Positions 18,638 through 36,760 of a DNA stretch of 43,035 nt are shown piece by piece; positions within the stretch are counted from its first letter, which is position 1, and every line of letters starts with the position of its first letter. The DNA comes from a virus (Duplodnaviria; Heunggongvirae; Uroviricota; Caudoviricetes): positions 1 through 43,035 of the IMG/VR virus record IMGVR_UViG_2541047789_000007; one strand, written 5' to 3'. Both the position numbers and the translations under genes were made by a program. The notes under the pieces were generated by a model. That model saw only the letters and a list, made by a program, of their open reading frames with translations, searched no databases and had not been told where the DNA came from.

Positions 18638-19764
18638 CAATCAGGAAACACCGCCAGGGCGAAACGATCAATATAACTTTCACCTACAAAGGAGTTAAAT
18701 GTCGTGAGCCTCTTTCCAATCTGGAAGTAACACCAAAGAACATTAAATACGCCGAGCGCACACTCGGCGAAATCCATAATAAGATCGAAAGGGGAACATT
18801 CATTTATGCGGAATATTTTCCCCGTTCTGCTCGTTTGAAAATTTTTGGTAATGCGGCTGCAGGCAAAACGGTAAAAATGTACCTGGACGAATACCTTGAA
18901 ATCTGCGAAACGAGAAAACTTTCACCCTCTACGATTGGTGGTTATAAAAAATGCCGTAGTGCGTTAGCCTCACTCCACATTTGCTCTGCAAGTGAATTAA
19001 CACCAGCAATCCTGAAAGCGTGGATTCAAAGCCAGAAAACGACCTTAAAAACAATTCGCAACCAGTTATCTTTCCTGCGGTCAGCACTTGATGAAGCCGT
19101 AACCGATGGAGTACTTCAAATTAACCCCGTATCGTTGGTAACTGCTTCGCGCTACCAAAGTGGTAAGTCAGAAGCAGAAAGCAGCTACGTGGTTGATCCG
19201 CTATCACCAGCAGAAGTTGATGTATTACTAGCAGCAGCCGGAAACAAACAATGGGAGAATCTGTTCCGGTTCGCTATACATACAGGCCTGCGTAGTTCTG
19301 AATTATGTGCCCTTCGATGGCGTGATATCGACTTTGTTGGAAAAACAGCCCATGTTCAGAGCGCTAGTGTTGTCGGAGTTATCAAAGGAACAAAGACAAA
19401 AGCCGGTACCCGTAAAGTTGAACTGACTGAAGAAGCAATGTTGGCGCTGATAAATCAGAAGCCATTTACATTCATGAAGGATGCTACTGTCTTTGAAGAT
19501 CCAAAGACCAATAAGCCATGGGCAAGTGCTGATGCAATCAGAAAAAAAGCATGGGTGCCAACATTGCGAAAAGCAGGTATTCGTTACAGAAATCCATATC
19601 AAACTAGGCATACATTCGCCACCCGCCATATCAGCCGGGGAGCAAACCTGTTTTGGCTTGCAGCTCAAATGGGGCATAAAGGACCGGAGATGCTTTTCAG
19701 GCACTATGGCTCATATCTGAAGGAATATGATGGACAAACAAGCTTGAAGAAGATAACAATATAA
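18598..19764 (+). CDS. Tyrosine integrase (lambda-type)
   Basis: 388 aa; catalytic R...HxxR...Y (TGLRSSEL, RHTFATRHI, LFRHYGSY). Confidence 0.9.
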   Translation: MGQTKLLKLPRGVTIRKHRQGETINITFTYKGVKCREPLSNLEVTPKNIKYAERTLGEIHNKIERGTFIYAEYFPRSARLKIFGNAAAGKTVKMYLDEYLEICETRKLSPSTIGGYKKCRSALASLHICSASELTPAILKAWIQSQKTTLKTIRNQLSFLRSALDEAVTDGVLQINPVSLVTASRYQSGKSEAESSYVVDPLSPAEVDVLLAAAGNKQWENLFRFAIHTGLRSSELCALRWRDIDFVGKTAHVQSASVVGVIKGTKTKAGTRKVELTEEAMLALINQKPFTFMKDATVFEDPKTNKPWASADAIRKKAWVPTLRKAGIRYRNPYQTRHTFATRHISRGANLFWLAAQMGHKGPEMLFRHYGSYLKEYDGQTSLKKITI

Positions 19765-19778
19765 TCCAAGCATGAAAC

Positions 19779-19805
19779 TATTGGCCACAATTTGTGGCCA
19801 TTTTA
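19779..19805 (+). terminator. Hairpin terminator after int
   Basis: TGGCCAC-aattt-GTGGCCA followed by TTTTA. Confidence 0.45.
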
Positions 19806-19822
19806 CGGAGCAAGATACAAAC

Positions 19823-21556
19823 ATGGCAAATCAAATTACCAAACTAAAAAATATAAATGTTGTGAAGTTTCGCGGACTGAAAAATATAAACATCGAGTTT
19901 GGTTCTCGCCTAACTGTTATTTGTGGTAAAAATGGCACATCTAAATCCACAATTCTTGGCATTATCGCCCAAATATTTAGCTTTACAAAGGACTTTACCA
20001 AAAACCCTGAGACTGATTTAACACAATATAAAACATTAACAAATGGCAGCTTCAAGTCAGCTTTCAGCGAACATTTTAGGCTTTCAGAACAATTTGATGT
20101 TCCTGGTTCAATGGACGTCAAAATTAGTGTCTATGATGGTGCATCGAACAAACATCTTGAAAAACTAACATTAGGTTTATACAGCTACAGTGACAGAGAT
20201 AAATCAAGGCCTGTAGTCAGGGGAAATGATTCAATACCGGAAAAAAACCAAAGTAGAAACGTTACTCATCCTGTTATTTTTTTAAGCTTAGCACGACTTC
20301 TTCCTATTACATTAAGGACTAATTACTCAACACGGGATGTTCAGTACATCAATGAAAATTCTGATGAAATCAGAATGATGAGTAACCAACTCTTACTAAA
20401 AAACAATGGAAGCTCAGTAACAGCAACAAAAGGTACTATCGATTCAATGGTTGTCCATGGTGACAATTATGATCACCAATCAGTATCTGTTGGTGAAGAT
20501 AATGTTGGACAATTAATCCAAGCAATTTTTTCATTTAAAAGATTGAAGGAAACTTATTCTGATTATCATGGCGGAATATTGTTAATTGATGAAGCCGATG
20601 CAGGTCTTTTCCCTGCTGCACAGTTAGAGCTAATTAATATTCTAACTAAAGCAGCAAAACAATACGATCTGCAAATAATCATGACCTCGCACTCTCCATT
20701 AATAATAGAGGATATCTATAATCGTTCAAAACAAGATAGTGATAGCTTTAAAACAATATATCTTACAGACACATATGGAGATATTAAAACAAAGAATAAT
20801 CTTTCATGGACAGATATCCACGCTGATTTACATGTTGAAACTGTAAAAATTAATGATGACATTTGTCTTCCAAAAGCAAATGTATATTTTGAAGACAAAG
20901 AAGGTTTCGACTTTTTCAAACAATTGATAACAGATCGAAAAATAAATAAAATATTAAATCCATTAGGGAATATAAATATTAGCTGCTCTGCCATGCTTGA
21001 CTTAATGGCAAGAAAAATACCAGAATTTACAGCTAAAAGCTTGATCGTCTTAGACGGTGATGTTGTTCACGACAACAGTGCTAATGCAAAAAAAGCCAAA
21101 AAAGAAAAAAACTTATGTTTGCTTCCAAGCACCTTACCTCCAGACCAAATGATTTTTGAGTTTTTATATAATTTACCACCTGATGATGCATATTGGGAAA
21201 ATAAAAATAAATTTACAAAATCTGTTTTTATGAAAACAGCTAAAGACATAATTACAACGCTAAAGATTGGTAACGCTCCGATTGATTTAAAAATCCTTAT
21301 AGATAATTATAAAAAAGTTAACAAAAATCATGGCGGGAGAGTGAGAAAACTGTTTAAAGATTTTGCACATACGACTCAATTTCAGGACCAAGTCAAAGGA
21401 CGAGTTAAAGATAACCCATATCGATATTGGGTCGAGAAAAATCCTGTGCAATCGGATAGCTTCAAGAATGAACTAATAAAGAGTCTTAAAGTTATTATGA
21501 TAAGTGGACATGGTGTCGATTCTGCTACCATCTCATCATATCTGTCAGATAACTAA
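19823..21556 (+). CDS. OLD-like ABC-type ATPase with C-terminal TOPRIM-like region (candidate anti-phage nuclease)
   Basis: Walker A GKNGTSKST, Walker B LLIDEADAGL, TSHSP; C-terminal acidic motifs YFEDKEG and IVLDGD; AT-rich; start trimmed to MANQITK. Confidence 0.55.
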   Translation: MANQITKLKNINVVKFRGLKNINIEFGSRLTVICGKNGTSKSTILGIIAQIFSFTKDFTKNPETDLTQYKTLTNGSFKSAFSEHFRLSEQFDVPGSMDVKISVYDGASNKHLEKLTLGLYSYSDRDKSRPVVRGNDSIPEKNQSRNVTHPVIFLSLARLLPITLRTNYSTRDVQYINENSDEIRMMSNQLLLKNNGSSVTATKGTIDSMVVHGDNYDHQSVSVGEDNVGQLIQAIFSFKRLKETYSDYHGGILLIDEADAGLFPAAQLELINILTKAAKQYDLQIIMTSHSPLIIEDIYNRSKQDSDSFKTIYLTDTYGDIKTKNNLSWTDIHADLHVETVKINDDICLPKANVYFEDKEGFDFFKQLITDRKINKILNPLGNINISCSAMLDLMARKIPEFTAKSLIVLDGDVVHDNSANAKKAKKEKNLCLLPSTLPPDQMIFEFLYNLPPDDAYWENKNKFTKSVFMKTAKDIITTLKIGNAPIDLKILIDNYKKVNKNHGGRVRKLFKDFAHTTQFQDQVKGRVKDNPYRYWVEKNPVQSDSFKNELIKSLKVIMISGHGVDSATISSYLSDN

Positions 21557-21567
21557 TTGATTAAAAA

Positions 21568-21601
21568 GGGTTTTATGTGATGGCCATAAAGCCCTTTTTT
21601 T
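21568..21601 (+). terminator. Rho-independent terminator between OLD-like gene and Dam-like gene
   Basis: GGGTTTTATG-tgatggc-CATAAAGCCC followed by T7. Confidence 0.6.
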
Positions 21602-21635
21602 GATATACTTTAGATCTGACATTTAGAGGTATCAT

Positions 21636-22535
21636 ATGCGTTTTAACACCCCACTTCGCTATCCTGGCGGTAAAGGCAAGCTTGCAAATTTCATGCTTCG
21701 GATTATTGAAGAAAATAATCTTTCGCCTATACATTATGCCGAACCATATGCTGGGGGTGCTGGTTTAGCATTGAAACTGTTACATCTAAATGCAGCTGAA
21801 AAAATCATCCTTAATGATATTAATATTTCTGTTTATGCTTTTTGGCACAGTGTATTAAATCATGCAGATCAATTATGTTCTTTAATTGAAAGAACAGAAG
21901 TTACAATGGATGAATGGTTTAGGCAGAAAGATATAATTAATAATCCTAAAGACCATGATCTTTTAACAATTGGTTTCTCAACCTTTTTTCTCAATAGAAC
22001 AAATCGTTCTGGAATATTAAAAGGTGGTGTAATTGGCGGTAAAAATCAAGAAGGGAAATGGAAGCTTGACGCTCGCTATAATAAGAGTGATTTGATTTCT
22101 CGAATCCATAGAATATCAGAAAATCGTCACAGAATAGATTTATATAACATGGATGCAATTGATTTCATAAAAAAAATAGTTATTCAATTGCCACAAAACT
22201 CATTAACATATTTGGATCCACCTTATTACATAAAAGGTAAAGGCTTATATATCAACCATTATGATCATGATGATCATGTTAGGGTTGCAAAAGTCGTACA
22301 GAATAATATTAAAACGCCTTGGATTGTTTCTTACGATAACACTCCTGAGATCCAAGCTATGTATAAGACATCCTCATTAGTATATGGAATAAACTACAGT
22401 GCTCAAGATCGGTACAAAGGATCTGAGGTAATGTTCTTCAGTGAACGATTGAAAATCTTTAAAACAGATGATCCAACTAAGGTAAAAGCGCCTGTATTTA
22501 AAAGAGGATGTGTTGACGACCACATCCAGACATAA
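21636..22535 (+). CDS. Dam-family N6-adenine DNA methyltransferase (D12 class)
   Basis: Motifs RYPGGKGK, AEPYAGGAGL (FxGxG) and LDPPYY; 299 aa; AT-rich. Confidence 0.8.
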   Translation: MRFNTPLRYPGGKGKLANFMLRIIEENNLSPIHYAEPYAGGAGLALKLLHLNAAEKIILNDINISVYAFWHSVLNHADQLCSLIERTEVTMDEWFRQKDIINNPKDHDLLTIGFSTFFLNRTNRSGILKGGVIGGKNQEGKWKLDARYNKSDLISRIHRISENRHRIDLYNMDAIDFIKKIVIQLPQNSLTYLDPPYYIKGKGLYINHYDHDDHVRVAKVVQNNIKTPWIVSYDNTPEIQAMYKTSSLVYGINYSAQDRYKGSEVMFFSERLKIFKTDDPTKVKAPVFKRGCVDDHIQT

Positions 22536-22606: not shown

Positions 22607-22640
22607 ACGGACTCGGGTTCAACTCCCGCCAGCTCCACCA
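22607..22640 (+). other. ssrA: ssrA (tmRNA) 3'-end fragment ending CCA: att core shared by the two elements
   Basis: CGGACtCGGGTTCAACTCCCGCCAGCTCCACCA has a tRNA-like T-arm plus acceptor 3' strand and CCA and matches the recalled E. coli ssrA 3' end; upstream sequence is unrelated AT-rich prophage DNA. Confidence 0.6.
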
Positions 22641-24126: not shown

Positions 24127-24721
24127 ATCCAAATTCACATAAAAATTACTACAACTGACCATTTCTTTTTTTTCTGCTTACAGTGTCTTCGAAAGCCTGC
24201 TTCACACTTTCAACATTTGTAGACCACGATTTTAAAATAGTATCGGCTAAGGCTTCCTGACTGGTTGTTGGCATTCGATATTTTTTATCGTGCTTATTAA
24301 TATTCAATTTTGACTCCTCTATAAATAGCCACAAAGGTTCAATGAGAACATTCACCGCTGCAGCTTTACTTCTCCATCCTTCTTCAGGAGACAAATCATT
24401 TATAAGTTCCACCAGTTTTTCCTGAATAGGTCGATACATTTCAGATTTTTTTATCCCACCTTTCCTTCCTGATCTATTCCTGATAGATAAAAGTTTAGTT
24501 TGCTTATCTACTGAGATCTTATACCAAACCATCCCCATGCTTTTATCAAATAACTCAGATGCTTTTTTAAATGCTTCAAATGCAACATCCTCGTTGTCTG
24601 ATATAACTAATTCACCCCATTTATAGCACTTCAGTGCATACTTAAGGTGAAATTTAAAAAGCTCATCCATAGAGATATATTCAGGGATAATGACAGCAAC
24701 ATTATCGGTAATGACTCCAAC

Positions 24722-25225
24722 TTATTGATAGTGTTTTATGTTCAGATAATGCCCGATGACTTTGTCATGCAGCTCCACCGATTTTGAAAACGACAGCGAC
24801 TTCCGTCCCAGCCGTGCCAGGTGCTGCCTCAGATTCAGGTTATGCCGCTCAATTCGCTGCGTATATCGCTTGCTGATTACGTGCAGCTTTCCCTTCAGGC
24901 GGGATTCATACAGCGGCCAGCCATCCGTCATCCATATCACCACGTCAAAGGGTGACAGCAGGCTCATAAGACGCCCCAGCGTCGCCATAGTGCGTTCACC
25001 GAATACGTGCGCAACAACCGTCTTCCGGAGACTGTCATACGCGTAAAACAGCCAGCGCTGGCGCGATTTAGCCCCGACATAGCCCCACTGTTCGTCCATT
25101 TCCGCGCAGACGATGACGTCACTGCCCGGCTGTATGCGCGAGGTTACCGACTGCGGCCTGAGTTTTTTAAGTGACGTAAAATCGTGTTGAGGCCAACGCC
25201 CATAATGCGGGCAGTTGCCCGGCAT
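24722..25225 (-). CDS. insB: IS1 transposase InsB
   Basis: 167-aa ORF starting [16 protein letters not shown]. Confidence 0.9.
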
Positions 25226-25419
25226 CCAACGCCATTCATGGCCATATCAATGATTTTCTGGTGCGTACCGGGTTGAGAAGCGGTGTAAGTGAACTGCAGT
25301 TGCCATGTTTTACGGCAGTGAGAGCAGAGATAGCGCTGATGTCCGGCGGTGCTTTTGCCGTTACGCACCACCCCGTCAGTAGCTGAACAGGAGGGACAGC
25401 TGATAGAAACAGAAGCCAC
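25144..25419 (-). CDS. insA: IS1 InsA
   Basis: 91-aa ORF starting [32 protein letters not shown]. Confidence 0.9.
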
Positions 25420-25932
25420 TGGAGCACCTCAAAAACACCATCATACACTAAATCAGTAAGTTGGCAGCATCACCAACATTATCTCTCAGAAGTTCTGCCT
25501 CCAATGTACTCCAATAACGTTCAATAAGCTTAGCTAACTCGATGCTTTTCTCATTTGATGGAAAGTCCTTATGAGAGTCAGTGTACCTATGCTCCTTCAA
25601 ATAAGATGATGAATACAATAATATTCCGGGACCAAACTTCTTGGAGTTCCAGACCCGCTCTTTCATCATAGTCAACTCAGCCTGCATATCTGTATGCTTT
25701 TCATCCAGAACTTGGGCGTACATGCTCCATTCACAGTCCTTCATCTCACTGGAGAGAGCACTGCATTTTCGACTAATTTCTTCACTAAAAATTTTAAGAG
25801 AAAACATTTATCTTCACAATATCAACAAGTTAAACCCGTTAAAAATAAACCTTTGCTAGCCGTATTTTTTCGAAGAATCCTTGCAGCTATTCTTTGCTGG
25901 AACCAAACTGAGCTAACAAGAGGCAAACTAGT

Positions 25933-26145
25933 ATGAACACTTCATCAGCAGTCAGGATACTCCGCTTACCTGCTGTTATCCATAAAACAGGTATCTCGCG
26001 AGCCACAATTTATGACTGGTTGAACCCGAGGTCGCCGCGATATGATCCAACTTTTCCGAAGAAAAGAAAGCTTGGAACACAATCAGTTGGATGGCTTGAA
26101 TCAGAAATCGATGAATGGTTGTTACATCGTAGTCTTATTAATTAA
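25933..26145 (+). CDS. alpA: AlpA-family transcriptional regulator
   Basis: 70 aa; LRLPAV..KTGISRATIYDWLNP signature. Confidence 0.85.
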   Translation: MNTSSAVRILRLPAVIHKTGISRATIYDWLNPRSPRYDPTFPKKRKLGTQSVGWLESEIDEWLLHRSLIN

Positions 26146-27950: not shown

Positions 27951-28649
27951 ATGGAATCACAATATTCACTTACCAACGAAGAAATTTATGACTTGGTAGA
28001 AATAGCCTCCAAAAAGTATAGATCACCTATCGACCGCGATATTCTCATCCCACTACTTAACATGGTCTACGGTGCACTGGTGCAGAATAACCGAATACTA
28101 GCTATTCGTTCTGATCTGAGATTTGCCCAGTCCCATGTACTGGGAGAACCTGATCTACCCCTCTGCTTCCAGCGCGATGATGCACAGGCAATAACTCGCT
28201 CCTTCGAGTCACTGAAAAGCCAGCTACGGGCAGATCATAACCGGTCTAGGAGACCGGGTAACCCAACGTTGCTATCTTATGGGTGGTGTAGAGAACGTGA
28301 CGCAAGCGAGCATCCCCATTATCACCTGATGTTGTTGTTTAATGCAGATGTGTATGGATACTTGGGCAATTACCAAGAACTCAATGCTAAAAATATGGCA
28401 ACCCGAATACAGAAAGCTTGGTGCAGTGCTATAGGGCTTGCTCACGAAGATTACGCAACATTAGCTGAGTTTCCACCAAATGCTGTTTACAGGTTTAGCA
28501 GATTTGATGCACTGGATCGTAACCCAATCTACTGGGATTTCCTGATTCGACTGGCGTATTTGGCCAAAACCAGAACTAAGGATACCTACAGCGGTTACCG
28601 TAACTTTGGCACAAGTCAGTGCTTACGGTCGATCGGATTAACTTATTAA
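27951..28649 (+). CDS. yfjJ: YfjJ-like protein (inovirus Gp2-type replication-initiator-related domain)
   Basis: 232 aa, synteny after yfjI-like; family assignment from memory. Confidence 0.55.
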   Translation: MESQYSLTNEEIYDLVEIASKKYRSPIDRDILIPLLNMVYGALVQNNRILAIRSDLRFAQSHVLGEPDLPLCFQRDDAQAITRSFESLKSQLRADHNRSRRPGNPTLLSYGWCRERDASEHPHYHLMLLFNADVYGYLGNYQELNAKNMATRIQKAWCSAIGLAHEDYATLAEFPPNAVYRFSRFDALDRNPIYWDFLIRLAYLAKTRTKDTYSGYRNFGTSQCLRSIGLTY

Positions 28650-28731: not shown

Positions 28732-28767
28732 CCTCAGTACCCTGCTACAACCTGCTACATGTAGCAG
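28732..28767. repeat. Perfect 36-bp palindrome
   Basis: CTGCTACAACCTGCTACAT|GTAGCAGGTTGTAGCAG: 18 perfectly paired positions each side of centre. Confidence 0.85.
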
Positions 28768-29059
28768 GTTGTAGCAGCCTTAAGAGATCAGGGCGCATAT
28801 TTTTGGGGCTAATAAAGGGTAACTTGTTGCTGTTCCAGCTATGTTTGCTAGAAAGTATGTGGTTAAGGTCAATCATGATCCCCAGAGGTGCCTTCGCATA
28901 CATGTCAAATGTGAAATTCGCACGAGTAATTCAAAAAAGAACATGTTTTCATCGTGTTGAAACATTACGATAGAAGTATCAAGATTATTCTGAACGTTAC
29001 GAAACACAGTTGGAATTTCCACTTATCGTAATAGGATATTGGCAAAATGGAGTCGCTGA

Positions 29060-32000
29060 ATGAGTGTGTTGAGTTGGGCAATAGACCTATGCGGGAAGAT
29101 GGAAGCGTGGCTGGTTAAGCGCCAAGCAAAAGATCAACTACAGAGCGCAGAGCAGGGGTTGAGTCTGATGGAAGAAGAATTAGGTGATCGCTATGACACC
29201 TTAGCGCCGAAAACCATCAATGATGCCAGTATGCGAGAGTATTTCATTGCCCTGAAATACGCCTTGTCTCAGAAAGACGTAAGAAACATTGCCATTACAG
29301 GGAGCTATGGCGCAGGGAAAAGTACGGTTATTTCATCATTTATGAAATATCACTGCGATGATAAATACATCAATGTATCTCTTGCGGGATTCGATATGAC
29401 GGAAAATGAAACAACCGTCAGCCCAACTCACCAAGAGGTTGAACTCAGTATCCTGCAACAAATTCTTTATAAAGAGAATAGAGAGAAGCTTCCCGACTCA
29501 AGGATAGACAGAATAATCGACAGGGGCCCTCACTATGTCAGAGGAACTTATCGAGCCTTACTTAAAGTCATTACCCCCATCGCGGTAGCCGCATTTATTA
29601 TCTATTTCAAAACAATTGCAGAGTTTCTAAGCCTTCCGCCATCCTGGATCGAGGTATTTAATGCACACTACATCATAAAAGGCTTTATATTAGTTTCGCT
29701 GGCTTTTACCGCGCTGTACTTTATAACTGCCAGCGCATCTCGAATCGGTATTTTTGATAAGAAACTCAAGCTGAGCAAGATCGCGCTTTTAAGCGGGGAT
29801 GTTGAGGCAAGCGAGCAAGAGACACCATCCTTATTGAATAATTGCCTTGACGAGATCGTGTATTTTTTCACCAAGCTGAAATATAAGGTAGTCATCTTTG
29901 AAGATCTTGACAGGTTAGGGACGCCTGAGATTTTCGTTAAGTTGCGTGAAATTAACAAAATAGTTAACAATAATATTGTCGATGGCAGTCCGGTCAGGTT
30001 TGTTTATGCGGTAAGAGATGACCTATTCCTGGGCGCTGATGCCAGAACTAAATTCTTTGATTTCATTCTCCCTGTCATTCCATTTATGGACAGCAGAAAC
30101 GCGTTTACCTTATTAAAAAGGAAAATGTTACTCAATACGCATAACGATACATATTTGAAAGACATTTCTGTACATATAAATGATATGCGCAGCCTGCAGA
30201 ATTTGGTCAATGAGTACCATGTATTCAGTAATATCGTTGATAACGGCAACGACAAAATCAAACTGTTATCGCTGGTATTTTATAAAAATATCTATGCATT
30301 AGACTACTACCTTACCGATAAGAAAACAGGGGTTTTATATTCATTTATTCGCGACTATCGCACCCGAAAACTTCACCATAATCATTTTGACTCTCTGGAA
30401 ACAAAACTGGATCTTTTACAGGCCGAAATAGAACATCTTAATTATGAGCCTATGTATGACCATAGGGGAATTAGAGAGGAAATAGTTTGTCGATATATTC
30501 CTAAGATACTCTGGGATGGCGTTCATTTTGGTACGGGAAATGGATACAGTAATTTTTATCCTTTAGGAACTTTGGCTTTAATTGATGATGAAAATAGTTT
30601 TTTGGAGTTTTTATCGCAAAAGGAAAACTTATATATAGGCTACTTTGTTAGTCATCAGGGGCATTCACTTTCACTTTTTGATAGAGCATTAAGAGAACAA
30701 CTAAAAGAAGAATACCTGAAACGAAAAACGAAAATGGGTAAAGATAAAAACTCGGCTTTTAGTGAACTGCAAATAAAAATAAAGAAAATTAAAGAGTCAA
30801 TAAAATTAAAAAACACCCTTTCGCTGCGAGAACTTACGCTAATAATCGGGCGTGAGAAATTTGCAGAGATTGCGCAGGGGTATCTTGAGGCGATGGAGGG
30901 GCATGACTTCGTTTCTAAGCAGCAGCTCCATGCTTTGTGTGCTGATATGCGCAATGGCGGTTTAGACGCCTTATATCTGCTGCTGTCCGATGGTCTGGTG
31001 ATGCAAGACTTCATGGCCTACCGCTCTATTTTCCATGAAGGATCGATGACCGTAAATGATAACGACTTTTTGAAAGCCGTCGGTCAGGATCTGAGCTACG
31101 CAACCTCAAACGGTGAATATTTTATCGATGACGAGAACAGAGTCATCAGCGAATTGGTTGAACATAACCGTATTTATGCCGATGGCGCGCTTCATCATCA
31201 ACTGGTGACTCATTTGATTGATAACGCGGACGAACATCTGGCGGGCATGTTCGCTTCGCTATTCAGTCAGTCTGATGAACACATCCTTGCTGTTTTCTCT
31301 GAGCTTTATACACGATTTGGCAAACCCGAAACCTTCGATAAGTTAATCGTTACCGCGCTGCAAAAAAATGGTTATCTTGACAGAATGGTTGCCGTTCTCG
31401 CGGGACAGCTGGGTGAAAAATTCACCAACGATATTGCTATCAGCGTGATAGCCTGCGTATCACCTGCACATGCGCAAGATAAACTGCAATACCGCCAGCT
31501 TATTCATTCGCTGGGGTGCCGTATCATCTCTCAGCTCACCGAAGAAAATCAGGAAGCGTTTATGCGTCATGTACAACAGGCGGATGCACGCTATGACGAG
31601 CTGTTCGAACCAATAACGCCAACGGAGCGGTATTGCCTACAGTTTACTGCACAAAACAGCCTTTATCAGTTAACTCGACACAATGTTGGCATTGCCGTTT
31701 CATGTCTTATTGACAACATAACGCCTGAAGAGGCGGAAAGGAAACCCTGGACACTCGCCTATGAACATGAACTCAGCACGGTTTCTGACTACTTCAGTCA
31801 AAACATTGATATATTCGTCAGGGATGTGTTTATCTACTCCGCTGAGGATGGCGACTGTATCCGCTACGTTCTGACCCGTACCTCTCTAAGCGACGATTCC
31901 AAAGGCGATGTCGTCAGAAACATGACCTTCTCGTTTTCCGACCTGTCCGGGATATTGGCTAAAGCAGTATTTACCGAAGACCAGCTAACGATTTCCTATC

Positions 32001-32899
32001 ACGACCTGTTTTACCGATATGACCGCGTCGCACCGGGATGGGGGGCGCTGATAGACTATATCTGTGAAGATTGCGACATGGAGATACTGACGGCTTATGT
32101 GACAAAGCATGCGCCTGTATTGGGGCAATCATCCCCGGAAGTTTATGATGGCGACCGCTATGACCTGCTGTATATGAAAATTATCTGCAATGATGACCTA
32201 GAAGAACAGGTTTATCAGAGCCTAGTTGCACCGATTGAGATTAACATGCGGGAAATTGATGAGCGGCTTAGCGCGCGTCATTTCTGCACCCTGGTTGCCA
32301 TGCAGAAGCTGCCTCTCGACGCGGATGTGTATGAAAAAATTGCGGCTCAATATGCGGTTCAAGATGAAAATATAAGTGATGCCTTCGTCTATTGGTTCAG
32401 CCAGTACAAAAGTGAGTTTTTGACGCAGCCCGAATTCTATCTAAGAAAAGAAAAAGACGCGCGCTTCTTTAATGTCATGCTCACAAAAATCATAACCTAC
32501 GCGCACTTTACCGTGCAAGAGAGAGCGGACCTGGTGTCGCTATTCATTGATTATTTCATTGCGTCTGATATCGCTGACCTTAATTACCCTCATGATGTCC
32601 TGCTGCAGGTGTTTAACAGTACCAATAATGAAGAATTCAAGGTCATGCTGTTTACGCGATTTATTGTGACAGGCCTGAATAAACATCAACTGGCCGGGCT
32701 ATGTCATCAACTGGGCGAAGACGAATTGAGTAATGTATTCATCAATCGAACCCAGGCAACAATTGCTGTTATAAACAGGGAACGCGTGATATCAATTCTT
32801 GAACATCTGCAAGCAGTACGCATCATAAGAGGTTTTCAGGAGCGTGAAAGTGGGAAAATCTCCGTCTTTATCGAACCCGATCTGGAGGATAAAGATTAG
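29060..32899 (+). CDS. Giant KAP/YobI-type P-loop NTPase with transmembrane insertion (1279 aa)
   Basis: Walker A ITGSYGAGKST, then two hydrophobic helices, then Walker B KVVIFEDLDRLG; about 900-aa C-terminal region without recognisable motifs. Confidence 0.6.
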   Translation: MSVLSWAIDLCGKMEAWLVKRQAKDQLQSAEQGLSLMEEELGDRYDTLAPKTINDASMREYFIALKYALSQKDVRNIAITGSYGAGKSTVISSFMKYHCDDKYINVSLAGFDMTENETTVSPTHQEVELSILQQILYKENREKLPDSRIDRIIDRGPHYVRGTYRALLKVITPIAVAAFIIYFKTIAEFLSLPPSWIEVFNAHYIIKGFILVSLAFTALYFITASASRIGIFDKKLKLSKIALLSGDVEASEQETPSLLNNCLDEIVYFFTKLKYKVVIFEDLDRLGTPEIFVKLREINKIVNNNIVDGSPVRFVYAVRDDLFLGADARTKFFDFILPVIPFMDSRNAFTLLKRKMLLNTHNDTYLKDISVHINDMRSLQNLVNEYHVFSNIVDNGNDKIKLLSLVFYKNIYALDYYLTDKKTGVLYSFIRDYRTRKLHHNHFDSLETKLDLLQAEIEHLNYEPMYDHRGIREEIVCRYIPKILWDGVHFGTGNGYSNFYPLGTLALIDDENSFLEFLSQKENLYIGYFVSHQGHSLSLFDRALREQLKEEYLKRKTKMGKDKNSAFSELQIKIKKIKESIKLKNTLSLRELTLIIGREKFAEIAQGYLEAMEGHDFVSKQQLHALCADMRNGGLDALYLLLSDGLVMQDFMAYRSIFHEGSMTVNDNDFLKAVGQDLSYATSNGEYFIDDENRVISELVEHNRIYADGALHHQLVTHLIDNADEHLAGMFASLFSQSDEHILAVFSELYTRFGKPETFDKLIVTALQKNGYLDRMVAVLAGQLGEKFTNDIAISVIACVSPAHAQDKLQYRQLIHSLGCRIISQLTEENQEAFMRHVQQADARYDELFEPITPTERYCLQFTAQNSLYQLTRHNVGIAVSCLIDNITPEEAERKPWTLAYEHELSTVSDYFSQNIDIFVRDVFIYSAEDGDCIRYVLTRTSLSDDSKGDVVRNMTFSFSDLSGILAKAVFTEDQLTISYHDLFYRYDRVAPGWGALIDYICEDCDMEILTAYVTKHAPVLGQSSPEVYDGDRYDLLYMKIICNDDLEEQVYQSLVAPIEINMREIDERLSARHFCTLVAMQKLPLDADVYEKIAAQYAVQDENISDAFVYWFSQYKSEFLTQPEFYLRKEKDARFFNVMLTKIITYAHFTVQERADLVSLFIDYFIASDIADLNYPHDVLLQVFNSTNNEEFKVMLFTRFIVTGLNKHQLAGLCHQLGEDELSNVFINRTQATIAVINRERVISILEHLQAVRIIRGFQERESGKISVFIEPDLEDKD

Positions 32900-33369: not shown

Positions 33370-34470
33370 TTATTTGATGTTGGACTCAAAAATCTCAACG
33401 AGTTCTTTGACTTTTTTCATGCAATCAATATTAACACACCTATATTTATCATTATATTTTATAAGTGACACTAAATATGAGCGATAACCTTTTAATTTAT
33501 TCTGTAATTGATCATCAGCATACTTAGAGTAAAAATCAAATTTATTCCCATACCTTAGGGTAAACTTCCTATGGTTTAAATAGAATACGCTCTCCATTAT
33601 ATACATTGGGGATTTTTGTTTTTTGAGCAATGCGGAAACTTTTTTCAACGGTTTAAGTTTTTTATCAGATAGCCTGATGTTACCAACAGGCTTCTCTTTG
33701 TACACATGAAAAAAGTCTTTCTTTCTTTTCCTGTTCTGTACTACATAACCGTTAAGCGATATAGTGTTCTCAGTCGCTCTCCTTTTCTTTTTTTTCAACT
33801 TGAGAGAAAGTATAGAGACGAAGATAGAAATATCCTTTTCAAATTGCTCAGAATGCAGGTACTTACTGTTATCACAAGAAAAAAGCATATCATCTGCATA
33901 ACGTGAGTAGATAATCCCTTTATCTTCACACAATTTTTGAATAAGAATATCTACTCTTCTGAATATTATGTTTGATATTACAGGGGAGGATGAAAATCCA
34001 ATAGGTAACACTTCTTTCCCACGAAAGTCTTTGTCAATATAAGTGTCACTAACCTTGTGAGTAACAGAAATATATGCAATATCTAGAGCTGAGTATTTAT
34101 TTCCATTCTTTTCATTGTTGAAGTGCTGAGCGAGTAGGCTTTTTACTTCATGCGTAGGTATTGAATGGAAGAATTTTTTGATATCCAATCGTAGGAAGTA
34201 ATATCCTTGGATATGGGGCCTTAGAAAGTCGTAATAAGATTTACCTTGAACAAAGCCGCATGCGGATGAGTTAATGGGACTTTTATCTAGAACAAACTTA
34301 GTTATTCTATCATTTATACGCTTGTGTTCAGAGTCTCTAGAAATTTCAAAAAAGTTGTCGCAACCAACTTTAAACTCTCTGACGGCAGGAGTGAAATCAT
34401 TTAGAAGATCTTCATTGCCTTTAAGAATCGCTTTCTTAAAAAAGTCATCGCTAATATTATTTTTTATCAT
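33370..34470 (-). CDS. Reverse transcriptase (retron-like / defence-associated RT)
   Basis: RT motifs: motif A LRLDIKKFFHSI, motif B LPIGFSSSPVISNIIF, motif C YADD; 366 aa; AT-rich. Confidence 0.8.
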   Translation of the reverse strand: MIKNNISDDFFKKAILKGNEDLLNDFTPAVREFKVGCDNFFEISRDSEHKRINDRITKFVLDKSPINSSACGFVQGKSYYDFLRPHIQGYYFLRLDIKKFFHSIPTHEVKSLLAQHFNNEKNGNKYSALDIAYISVTHKVSDTYIDKDFRGKEVLPIGFSSSPVISNIIFRRVDILIQKLCEDKGIIYSRYADDMLFSCDNSKYLHSEQFEKDISIFVSILSLKLKKKKRRATENTISLNGYVVQNRKRKKDFFHVYKEKPVGNIRLSDKKLKPLKKVSALLKKQKSPMYIMESVFYLNHRKFTLRYGNKFDFYSKYADDQLQNKLKGYRSYLVSLIKYNDKYRCVNIDCMKKVKELVEIFESNIK

Positions 34471-34473
34471 AGA

Positions 34474-34673
34474 GCTTCAACCCGATACAAAAGAACACCA
34501 TTACACCGTAGGTGTGTACTTCGACGCATACTAATCAGAGTGACTAGTTTAGCAGTCATTAGGACTATGCCCAAAGCTAAAAGAAGCTGGACTCCCTCAA
34601 GCAAAGAGCGGGAGAGGCAAGCTCTCAGATACTTGTCGAAACTCATATCTCCCCTCTACTATCGGGTTGAAGC
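34474..34673 (-). ncRNA. Candidate retron msr-msd non-coding RNA bracketed by 14-bp inverted repeats (a1/a2-like)
   Basis: Perfect inverted repeat GCTTCAACCCGATA (34474-34487) / TATCGGGTTGAAGC (34660-34673) enclosing about 170 nt with internal hairpins; lies between OLD gene stop and RT start. Confidence 0.4.
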
Positions 34674-36760
34674 ATACGAATGATATCATAAAACTCGGGG
34701 AAATAAACTTTAAATACTGTCCCAAATGGTTGATTTTTAGCTAAAGACTCTTTTTCAACGTATCCGACGGCATAATTTAGGAAGCTTGTAGTCCATCCAT
34801 CGGTTTTATCAAGGTATTTGTTGTGTACAGTGTTCTCTTCTAATAATTTCATTAGCATTTTTGCATGCTTGGAAGTGTATCGCAACTTGCCGCTTACCTT
34901 TCTCTTATTATTTAAAGTTTGTTTGTATGTTTCAACATTGAAGTGGCTATAGTCAGTTAATGCCATTGACTTTCCATTAAAAATGACTCTAATGTAATCA
35001 ATGAGCATATCCTCTGTAACATACTTGCTTCGTTTTATACGCTTCAATGTAGAATCAAAATTAGAATTATGTTCACTGTCTAACCATCCATATACAATTT
35101 TTGAGCTATGTTTCTGGATTAAACAACCTTCTAATGTTGTTCTATTTAGATAAATATTCTGATCAAGCAACCTGCTTTTAACAGCAGTAAATACCGACTC
35201 AAAGTCAGACTCATCTAGAAAAGTTTGAGTTGTATTATTTACTTTTACTTCTTTATTTATAACGGATAACAACGTCTCAATATTTTCTCGTTTTGTCTTG
35301 TACTTCTTGCTAAAACCCAATTTGTATTTATTAAGCTCTGATTTTAAAGTATCTGGTTTAAAGTTAAAATAGCTACCGTTTTTTTCTAGTTTTATAGATA
35401 AACTACGAGGCTCACCTTTAATTGATATTGCTTTGTCTGCATCGAATAAGAATAAGTATGGTATAGTAGAGTTTGAGTATGATGGATTAACTCGCTCACC
35501 AACGACATTGCTACTACATTTATAAACATCTATATTTCTTAAATGAGGGAAATGTTCAGTCATCTTCATGTTTCCAAAAGCTTCCAACTCACTTTCACCC
35601 TCTACAAATAGGATAAAGTCGCTAAAAAACAATCTTGCTTCATTGTCACTAAAAATATTTATAAAGCTCTCGTTGTCATAAGTGGAATTTAATATGCTAA
35701 TCGTAGTTCTAGCATCAACTTTCTTCTGAAAACAATAAACACGTTGTTTTTGCCTGAACTTTTTAATTATCTCTTTTACTATATTCGGCGAATGAGTTGT
35801 TATAAATACTTTAGGCCTAGTAACTCGATCATCTTTTTTTTCATTATAATTGTAACTAGTAAATATATCTTGGACTAGAACCTCGTTCATTTTAGGGTGT
35901 AGACCTAGCTCTGGTTCATCAATAAAAACAAATGGTGTTATATATTCTCTTCTTGAAATTGTAATTAGTATCCTAAGAAAGGTTTTTATGAAATGAAATG
36001 AATTTGTTCCATCTGAGTGAAACTTTAAATCATTTTCGTCTATCTCAAACCGATAACCTTTTAATCCAGCCTTAATATAGCTCAACACCTTTTCTTTCTG
36101 AGAACTTGGCTTCGTAGATATCGTTCTATTTAAGTCTGAAATATAATTCCTATAAGAATTATCACCACTCGAATTAATTGAATTATCAAAAAAATCAATT
36201 ACAGATTGGTCATCAATTTTAGACAGATTGAAAGACTTCACTCTTGATATAAGATCCCACAAACTGTCCCATTCATGTAAATCCATATGTCTAGGTTCAA
36301 CATGGAAAAATGGAAATAGATAAAGAATAAGGTTTAAAGTTTGTTTGTCTTTAGTTGACCACTTAACTTTACCATCGCTGTATATGTTCAGTGTCAAAGT
36401 ATAAGTGGTGTAATCATTATCGTAGCGCGTTAATGCAAATATGCTTCGTTTATGGAGAGGAACCAATTTTCGGATGATAAAATCAAAATACTTATTTTTA
36501 GGTTGATTCCTGGCTATCCTATAAATTCTGGTCATATCATAAGTTACTGATATAGAACCTTTATACGAATAATTAGAGTTTAGCTTTGGCGGTAACTCTT
36601 CTTTGCCTTCTAGTTTATTGTAGAAGAATTTAAGAACTTTAAGTAAGTTAGACTTTCCAACGTTATTGCGACCGACAATGCAGTTTAAGTCGTTTAAGTT
36701 ATCAACATTTAGCTCATCGAATGATAACAAGTTGGTGATTTTTATAGCCTGTACAGTCAT
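34643..36760 (-). CDS. OLD-family ATPase/TOPRIM nuclease (705 aa)
   Basis: Walker A GRNNVGKSN, Walker B FVFIDEPELGLHP, TTHSP, TOPRIM LFVEGESELEAF and LFLFDADKA; AT-rich. Confidence 0.8.
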   Translation of the reverse strand: MTVQAIKITNLLSFDELNVDNLNDLNCIVGRNNVGKSNLLKVLKFFYNKLEGKEELPPKLNSNYSYKGSISVTYDMTRIYRIARNQPKNKYFDFIIRKLVPLHKRSIFALTRYDNDYTTYTLTLNIYSDGKVKWSTKDKQTLNLILYLFPFFHVEPRHMDLHEWDSLWDLISRVKSFNLSKIDDQSVIDFFDNSINSSGDNSYRNYISDLNRTISTKPSSQKEKVLSYIKAGLKGYRFEIDENDLKFHSDGTNSFHFIKTFLRILITISRREYITPFVFIDEPELGLHPKMNEVLVQDIFTSYNYNEKKDDRVTRPKVFITTHSPNIVKEIIKKFRQKQRVYCFQKKVDARTTISILNSTYDNESFINIFSDNEARLFFSDFILFVEGESELEAFGNMKMTEHFPHLRNIDVYKCSSNVVGERVNPSYSNSTIPYLFLFDADKAISIKGEPRSLSIKLEKNGSYFNFKPDTLKSELNKYKLGFSKKYKTKRENIETLLSVINKEVKVNNTTQTFLDESDFESVFTAVKSRLLDQNIYLNRTTLEGCLIQKHSSKIVYGWLDSEHNSNFDSTLKRIKRSKYVTEDMLIDYIRVIFNGKSMALTDYSHFNVETYKQTLNNKRKVSGKLRYTSKHAKMLMKLLEENTVHNKYLDKTDGWTTSFLNYAVGYVEKESLAKNQPFGTVFKVYFPEFYDIIRMLQPDSRGEI

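Follow-up and report, generated by a model that had tools for sequence, protein, structure and literature searches.

A strain-private IS1 insertion splits a yfjH-like gene in a CP4-57-like ssrA island of Escherichia coli

The DNA considered here, which we call the window, is the whole 43,035-nucleotide stretch of the IMG/VR record IMGVR_UViG_2541047789_000007, and it is 100% identical to contig KE700289.1 of the NCBI E. coli draft genome GCA_000458275.1. It holds a lambdoid prophage followed by an island that resembles the CP4-57 element of K-12 and starts at a remnant of the ssrA 3′ end (Table 1). Within the island, on the minus strand, a gene related to yfjH is cut in two by the only IS1 copy of the 43-kb window, and the insertion is bounded on either side by the same short direct repeat.

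Table 1. Features of the window discussed in the text, with positions counted from the first letter of the window.
Feature	Position	Strand	Details and basis
Lambdoid prophage terminase	1523..3625		
Lambdoid prophage integrase	18598..19764		
AAA_15/AAA_21 ATPase (594 aa) and D12-class/Dam-type adenine methylase (299 aa)	19772..22535	plus	
ssrA 3′ remnant, 33 nt	22608..22640		32/33 match; island start
yfjH-like gene, 3′ portion	24149..24706	minus	native residues 109–293
yfjH-like gene, only ORF left in the 3′ portion	24149..24670	minus	173 aa, start at internal M121; EQS49414.1 / WP_021535416.1
Target-site duplication, left copy	24698..24706		AACATTATC; direct read and script recount
IS1, complete, IS1A type, 768 bp	24707..25474	minus	alignment to K-12 IS1A
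IRR, right terminal inverted repeat	24707..24729	minus	GGTAATGACTCCAACTTATTGAT as read on the plus strand
insB′ reading frame	24722..25225	minus	DDE_Tnp_IS1 domain
insA, 91 aa	25144..25419	minus	GTG start; InsA zinc-ribbon and HTH_Tnp_IS1 domains
A6C (AAAAAAC) programmed −1 frameshift motif	25162..25168	minus	near the end of insA
yfjH-like gene, 5′ fragment	25448..25807	minus	119-aa chimeric product; EQS49417.1 / WP_021535417.1
IRL, left terminal inverted repeat	25452..25474	minus	GGTGATGCTGCCAACTTACTGAT on the minus strand
Target-site duplication, right copy	25475..25483		AACATTATC; direct read and script recount
Perfect 36-bp palindrome	28742..28777		halves CTGCTACAACCTGCTACA and TGTAGCAGGTTGTAGCAG
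Tmn, 1,279-aa YobI-like P-loop NTPase	29060..32899	plus	PADLOC Tmn, E 2e-175
Retron Eco8 (type I-B) RT	33370..34470	minus	PADLOC RT_I-B, E 7e-93
Retron Eco8 ATPase-Toprim effector	34643..36760	minus	NCBIfam retron_eff_Eco8, 827 bits

The element has the anatomy of the IS1 family, whose defining features, including the A6C frameshift and the inverted repeats, are summarised in PMC12428005: a length of about 768 bp with imperfect terminal repeats, IRL and IRR agreeing at 18 of 23 positions, and an insA gene that overlaps the insB′ frame and carries the AAAAAAC motif. Pfam matches within it are to Zn_ribbon_InsA, HTH_Tnp_IS1 and DDE_Tnp_IS1 (PF03811, PF12759 and PF03400), and a −1 shift at the A6C motif joins the two frames into a 232-aa InsAB′ transposase that scores 243 bits against the NCBIfam IS1 transposase equivalog NF033558 (cut-off 100). 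Because IRL lies at the high-coordinate end, IS1 is co-oriented with the gene that it interrupts.

Alignment with IS1A of K-12, a comparison that the preliminary description of this DNA had proposed, runs from end to end over the same 768-bp length with identity at 766 of 768 positions. The IS1A/IS1E type is the "consensus", transposition-competent form of IS1, to which almost every IS1 transposition in K-12 is attributed (PMC12428005). IRL and IRR are both identical to the K-12 IS1A repeats, and the A6C motif and the 9-bp duplication are likewise the same. Counting from IRL, the two substitutions fall at IS positions 262 and 687; both are synonymous, and InsA (InsA1) and InsAB′ are therefore unchanged, identical to the K-12 proteins. 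Given this identity with the active K-12 IS1A/E type, together with the fresh insertion documented below, the copy is expected to be transposition-competent. The exact two-substitution variant is itself common elsewhere in E. coli: copies 100% identical to it, annotated as "IS1-like element IS1A family", lie on many chromosomes and plasmids. Of 5,426 complete E. coli genomes, 4,971 have IS1 matches, the median being 11 places in a genome. A promoter-like hexamer pair (25467..25440) overlaps IRL, where an IS1 promoter has been described (PMC12428005). Scanning for promoters and terminators around the insertion returned sites no more numerous than in shuffled sequence, and so gives no basis for IS1-driven expression of the C-terminal fragment.

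The preliminary description had presented a complete IS1 with both terminal inverted repeats, flanked by identical 9-bp copies of its target. Both statements hold: the 768-bp element has an intact InsA, the A6C motif and the full InsAB′, and AACATTATC reads the same on the two sides when recounted by script. The span proposed for the insertion, 24698-25482, has the right start, but its end falls one base short, since the second repeat stops at 25483. Elsewhere on the plus strand of the 43-kb window AACATTATC is absent, and the gap between its two copies is exactly the 768 bp of the element. Formally, the matching direct-repeat stretch extends to 10 bp, CAACATTATC, the extra base being the C at 25474. 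A 10-bp duplication was nevertheless rejected, as IS1 canonically ends in a C; the end-to-end alignment with K-12 IS1A assigns the tenth base to the element as its own last base, and the duplication is accordingly 9 bp, within the 8–9 bp expected of the IS1 family (PMC12428005). By chance, all nine positions would match at the two exact boundaries with a probability of about 4e-6 if the four bases were equally frequent, and of 1.4e-5 at the local composition. IS1 prefers AT-rich targets, a preference that the AT-rich insertion site fits (37% GC, against 45% for the window). Read on the minus strand, the left copy is GAT AAT GTT and coincides, in phase 0, with the target-gene codons D109, N110 and V111.

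On the 5′ side of the break, the surviving ORF encodes a chimera of native residues 1–111 and 8 residues contributed by IS1 (GDAANLLI), with its stop inside IRL. This ORF and the one left in the 3′ portion share a reading frame, as had been claimed for the fragments on either side of the duplication: deletion of the 777 bp made up of IS1 and a single copy of the repeat, equal to 259 codons, restores an uninterrupted 293-aa minus-strand ORF. Most family-invariant positions of the protein lie in residues 125–279, that is, 3′ of the insertion. In the source draft, EQS49417.1 and EQS49414.1 are annotated as separate "hypothetical proteins"; the two entries represent the halves of a single pseudogene broken by IS1, and should be merged.

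Over 289 aa, the restored protein and K-12 YfjH share 45% identity (E 3e-88). The gene's neighbour is an integrase 85% identical to IntA, and the next genes carry Phage_AlpA, DUF3987 (YfjI) and YagK_YfjJ_C domains, in the order found in CP4-57 of K-12 (int-yfjH-alpA-yfjI-yfjJ). Shared identity and shared order bear out the earlier yfjH-like label, and on these grounds of sequence and synteny we regard the split gene as a true YfjH homologue. Like yfjH (b2623) in CP4-57, it sits between a P4-type integrase gene, to which it is convergent, and alpA, from which it diverges, in the same position and orientation; unlike yfjH, it is a divergent allele that is interrupted by IS1 and whose restored product has 293 aa, compared with the 318 aa annotated in K-12. 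YfjH itself is still counted among the E. coli y-ome (PMC11551758). The restored protein matches PHROG 19089 (phrog_19089, "unknown function") over residues 1–289 (E 2.5e-77), and searches of Pfam, NCBIfam and PADLOC models and of PDB sequences returned no match. The family is a small one: homology searching gathered 14 clusters, all of them enterobacterial "hypothetical" proteins and including Serratia, Citrobacter and Yersinia, to which the query's own 90%-identity cluster adds E. coli, Klebsiella and Cronobacter. An AlphaFold2 model built on an 11-sequence alignment was all-helical and poor (mean pLDDT 59.7, pTM 0.38); Foldseek found nothing below E 0.5 for it in the PDB, and a fold assignment is therefore withheld.

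The same yfjH-like allele is also found without IS1 on contig 39 of the Logan assembly of SRR10996852 (1141..2022), where it carries a nonsense codon at the family-invariant W99. The W99 stop in that strain, in a gene that is otherwise identical, is a second, independent null allele.

Turning to the surroundings, an IntA-like integrase adjoins the ssrA 3′ end, as in CP4-57-like islands, but a complete ssrA is not directly adjacent; neither ARAGORN nor Rfam found a complete tmRNA/ssrA, or a tRNA, next to the integrase within the window. With a prophage that has its own integrase upstream of the island, and an ssrA remnant in place of the full gene, the arrangement is read as a tandem array at ssrA. 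A similar tandem integrase pair occurs in E. coli WP5-W18-ESBL-11. At the end of the prophage, between its integrase and the att remnant, lies the moron-like pair of ATPase and adenine methylase genes, which may possibly be defence or anti-defence cargo.

The island also differs in cargo from CP4-57, with Tmn and retron Eco8 here and, at the corresponding place downstream of yfjJ, abpB (yfjK) in K-12. The retron was recognized from its RT and effector, with no msr/msd RNA reaching the Rfam gathering score; further cargo comprises GTPase, DUF932, antirestriction and RadC genes. A perfect palindrome, each arm of which contains two CTGCTACA units, follows the YfjJ/Gp2-like gene (27951..28649) about 90 bp beyond its downstream end; it might act as a terminator, as an operator or as an origin-like site.

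The form of the locus before IS1 arrived can be read directly from relatives. The reconstituted 1,024-bp site matches 13 of the 5,426 complete E. coli genomes searched, each time as one uninterrupted piece. Five of them (A0 34/86, Z0117EC0036, 22KM0354, 21KM1392 and MEI3O-23) are 100% identical to it over 1,024 bp and the remaining eight 86–95% identical, so that the comparison with an uninterrupted yfjH-like allele, also proposed at the outset, finds the restored DNA existing as such in five genomes. The uninterrupted allele in these five strains is WP_021520965.1. For instance, A0 34/86, which has no IS1 in the gene, carries at the empty site a hypothetical gene of 882 nt, with ssrA upstream and with the integrase and an AlpA-family regulator as its two neighbours; over the 1,024 bp the window is 100% identical to this allele once IS1 and one repeat are taken out. 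A complete ssrA adjoins the island in A0 34/86; in the window the lambdoid prophage lies between and only the 33-nt remnant precedes the integrase. Compared base by base with A0 34/86 on both sides of the insertion, the island flanks show 2 differences in 14,516 bp, at 22613 (in the att core) and at 34869, and no indel other than IS1 with its duplication. As the flanks are collinear and hold no other indel, the event is a simple insertion, with no adjacent deletion, inversion or composite structure.

In contrast to the empty site, the filled site occurs in none of the 5,426 complete E. coli genomes, and a 38-mer spanning the junction has no match among GTDB species-representative genomes. Exact look-ups across about 15 billion proteins placed the intact 293-aa protein on at least 1,000 contigs, the 119-aa chimera on 1 and the 173-aa fragment on four. 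The insertion is strain-private. The preliminary description had argued from the perfect duplication to a simple, recent transposition. Both of these outcomes stand, with the caveat that an intact 9-bp repeat on its own is weak evidence of recency; "recent" is justified far better by the near-identical empty sites in relatives and by the confinement of the filled site to one strain. The insertion thus appears to postdate divergence from essentially identical empty-site islands, a relative timing rather than an absolute date.

Could the break be a product of assembly, with an IS1 repeat misplaced by the draft assembler in a gene that is really intact? GCA_000458275.1 is indeed a short-read draft, and IS1 is a multicopy repeat, at its median of 11 places in an E. 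coli genome. A 9-bp target duplication, however, is not something that assemblers create, and the independent Logan assembly of SRR958289 contains two contigs that run 27–28 nt into IS1, one for each junction: that on the right flank ends 28 nt inside IRL, at window position 25447, and that on the left flank ends 27 nt inside IRR, at 24733, each carrying one repeat copy. Look-ups with the two fragment proteins brought up no contig of this run in which the gene is uninterrupted. Since both junctions are present in the raw reads, the insertion is not a scaffolding artefact, and this explanation retains next to no probability. Hardly any credence can be given, either, to the idea that the locus records an IS1-mediated rearrangement (an adjacent deletion, inversion, cointegrate or composite transposon) in place of a simple insertion. 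IS1 does make cointegrates and adjacent deletions, but rearrangements involving two copies leave non-matching flanks, whereas here identical direct 9-bp repeats stand on either side, the DNA beyond them lines up with the empty-site allele to the exact base, and a single IS1 copy is present in 43 kb.

An old insertion, fixed in its lineage and still bounded by matching repeats only because 9 bp rarely mutate, would look the same at the junctions, where the perfect repeat says nothing on age. We consider it extremely unlikely, in view of a filled site in 0 of 5,426 complete genomes against an empty site in 13, a chimeric protein confined to 1 contig while at least 1,000 carry the intact form, flanks only 2 bases in 14,516 removed from an empty-site island, and an IS1 that is 100% identical to many other copies. 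Alternatively the knock-out may have been selected, loss of the yfjH-like gene being advantageous, for instance through the defence cargo or through island excision, rather than a case of neutral decay. The independent W99-stop allele in another strain speaks for this, as does a TIC/TAC screen in which K-12 yfjH, when overexpressed, emerged among the prophage-gene "blockers" of the retron-Sen2 toxin RcaT (10.1101/2020.06.22.160242), given that the island carries retron Eco8. Against it, two null alleles beside at least 1,000 contigs with the exact intact protein match the expectation for a cryptic-prophage gene in neutral decay, and the K-12 result comes from an overexpression screen with a different retron and an orthologue only 45% identical. 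On balance, selection is unlikely. Its more specific form, in which the YfjH-like protein would regulate or antagonise Eco8 and/or Tmn, or island excision, with the IS1 insertion and the W99 stop as a selected switch, has the K-12 screen as its one lead and is rated as very unlikely; were it true, both lesions would change defence activity or island stability.

The reading that we favor, at a probability of roughly 0.96 and with no observation that speaks against it, is that a transposition-competent IS1 of the IS1A type entered codons 109–111 of a 293-aa yfjH-like gene by simple transposition, in a CP4-57-like ssrA island of E. coli. Here "simple insertion" is read from the product and not from the pathway, which may have been cut-and-paste, copy-and-paste or cointegrate resolution. 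Following established IS1 biology (described in part in PMC12428005), InsAB′ would be made by a rare −1 frameshift, and would bind IRL and IRR and join the IS ends to a target cut with a 9-bp stagger; repair of the two gaps would then duplicate AACATTATC as a direct repeat. For the yfjH-like gene, the likely outcome is a null allele or a severely truncated one, because the 119-aa product is without the conserved C-terminal two-thirds and because the 3′ part is separated from its promoter and start codon. Neighboring genes are probably unaffected, and polar effects are not expected: the integrase and target genes are convergent, and the insertion lies 324 bp from the 125 bp (25808..25932) that separate the yfjH-like start at 25807 from the divergent alpA, which begins at 25933, so that this control region is untouched.

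In essence, this is a textbook case of simple insertion by IS1 into an uncharacterised gene of a prophage island, a type of event known before, and its significance beyond annotation is slight. It is nonetheless a fully documented, strain-private insertion with a known empty site, and as such might be used as a strain marker. The gene destroyed is a member of the YfjH family, an uncharacterised group whose genes sit in ssrA defence islands at the end with the integrase, and natural null alleles of this sort could serve as ready-made mutants for the study of that family.
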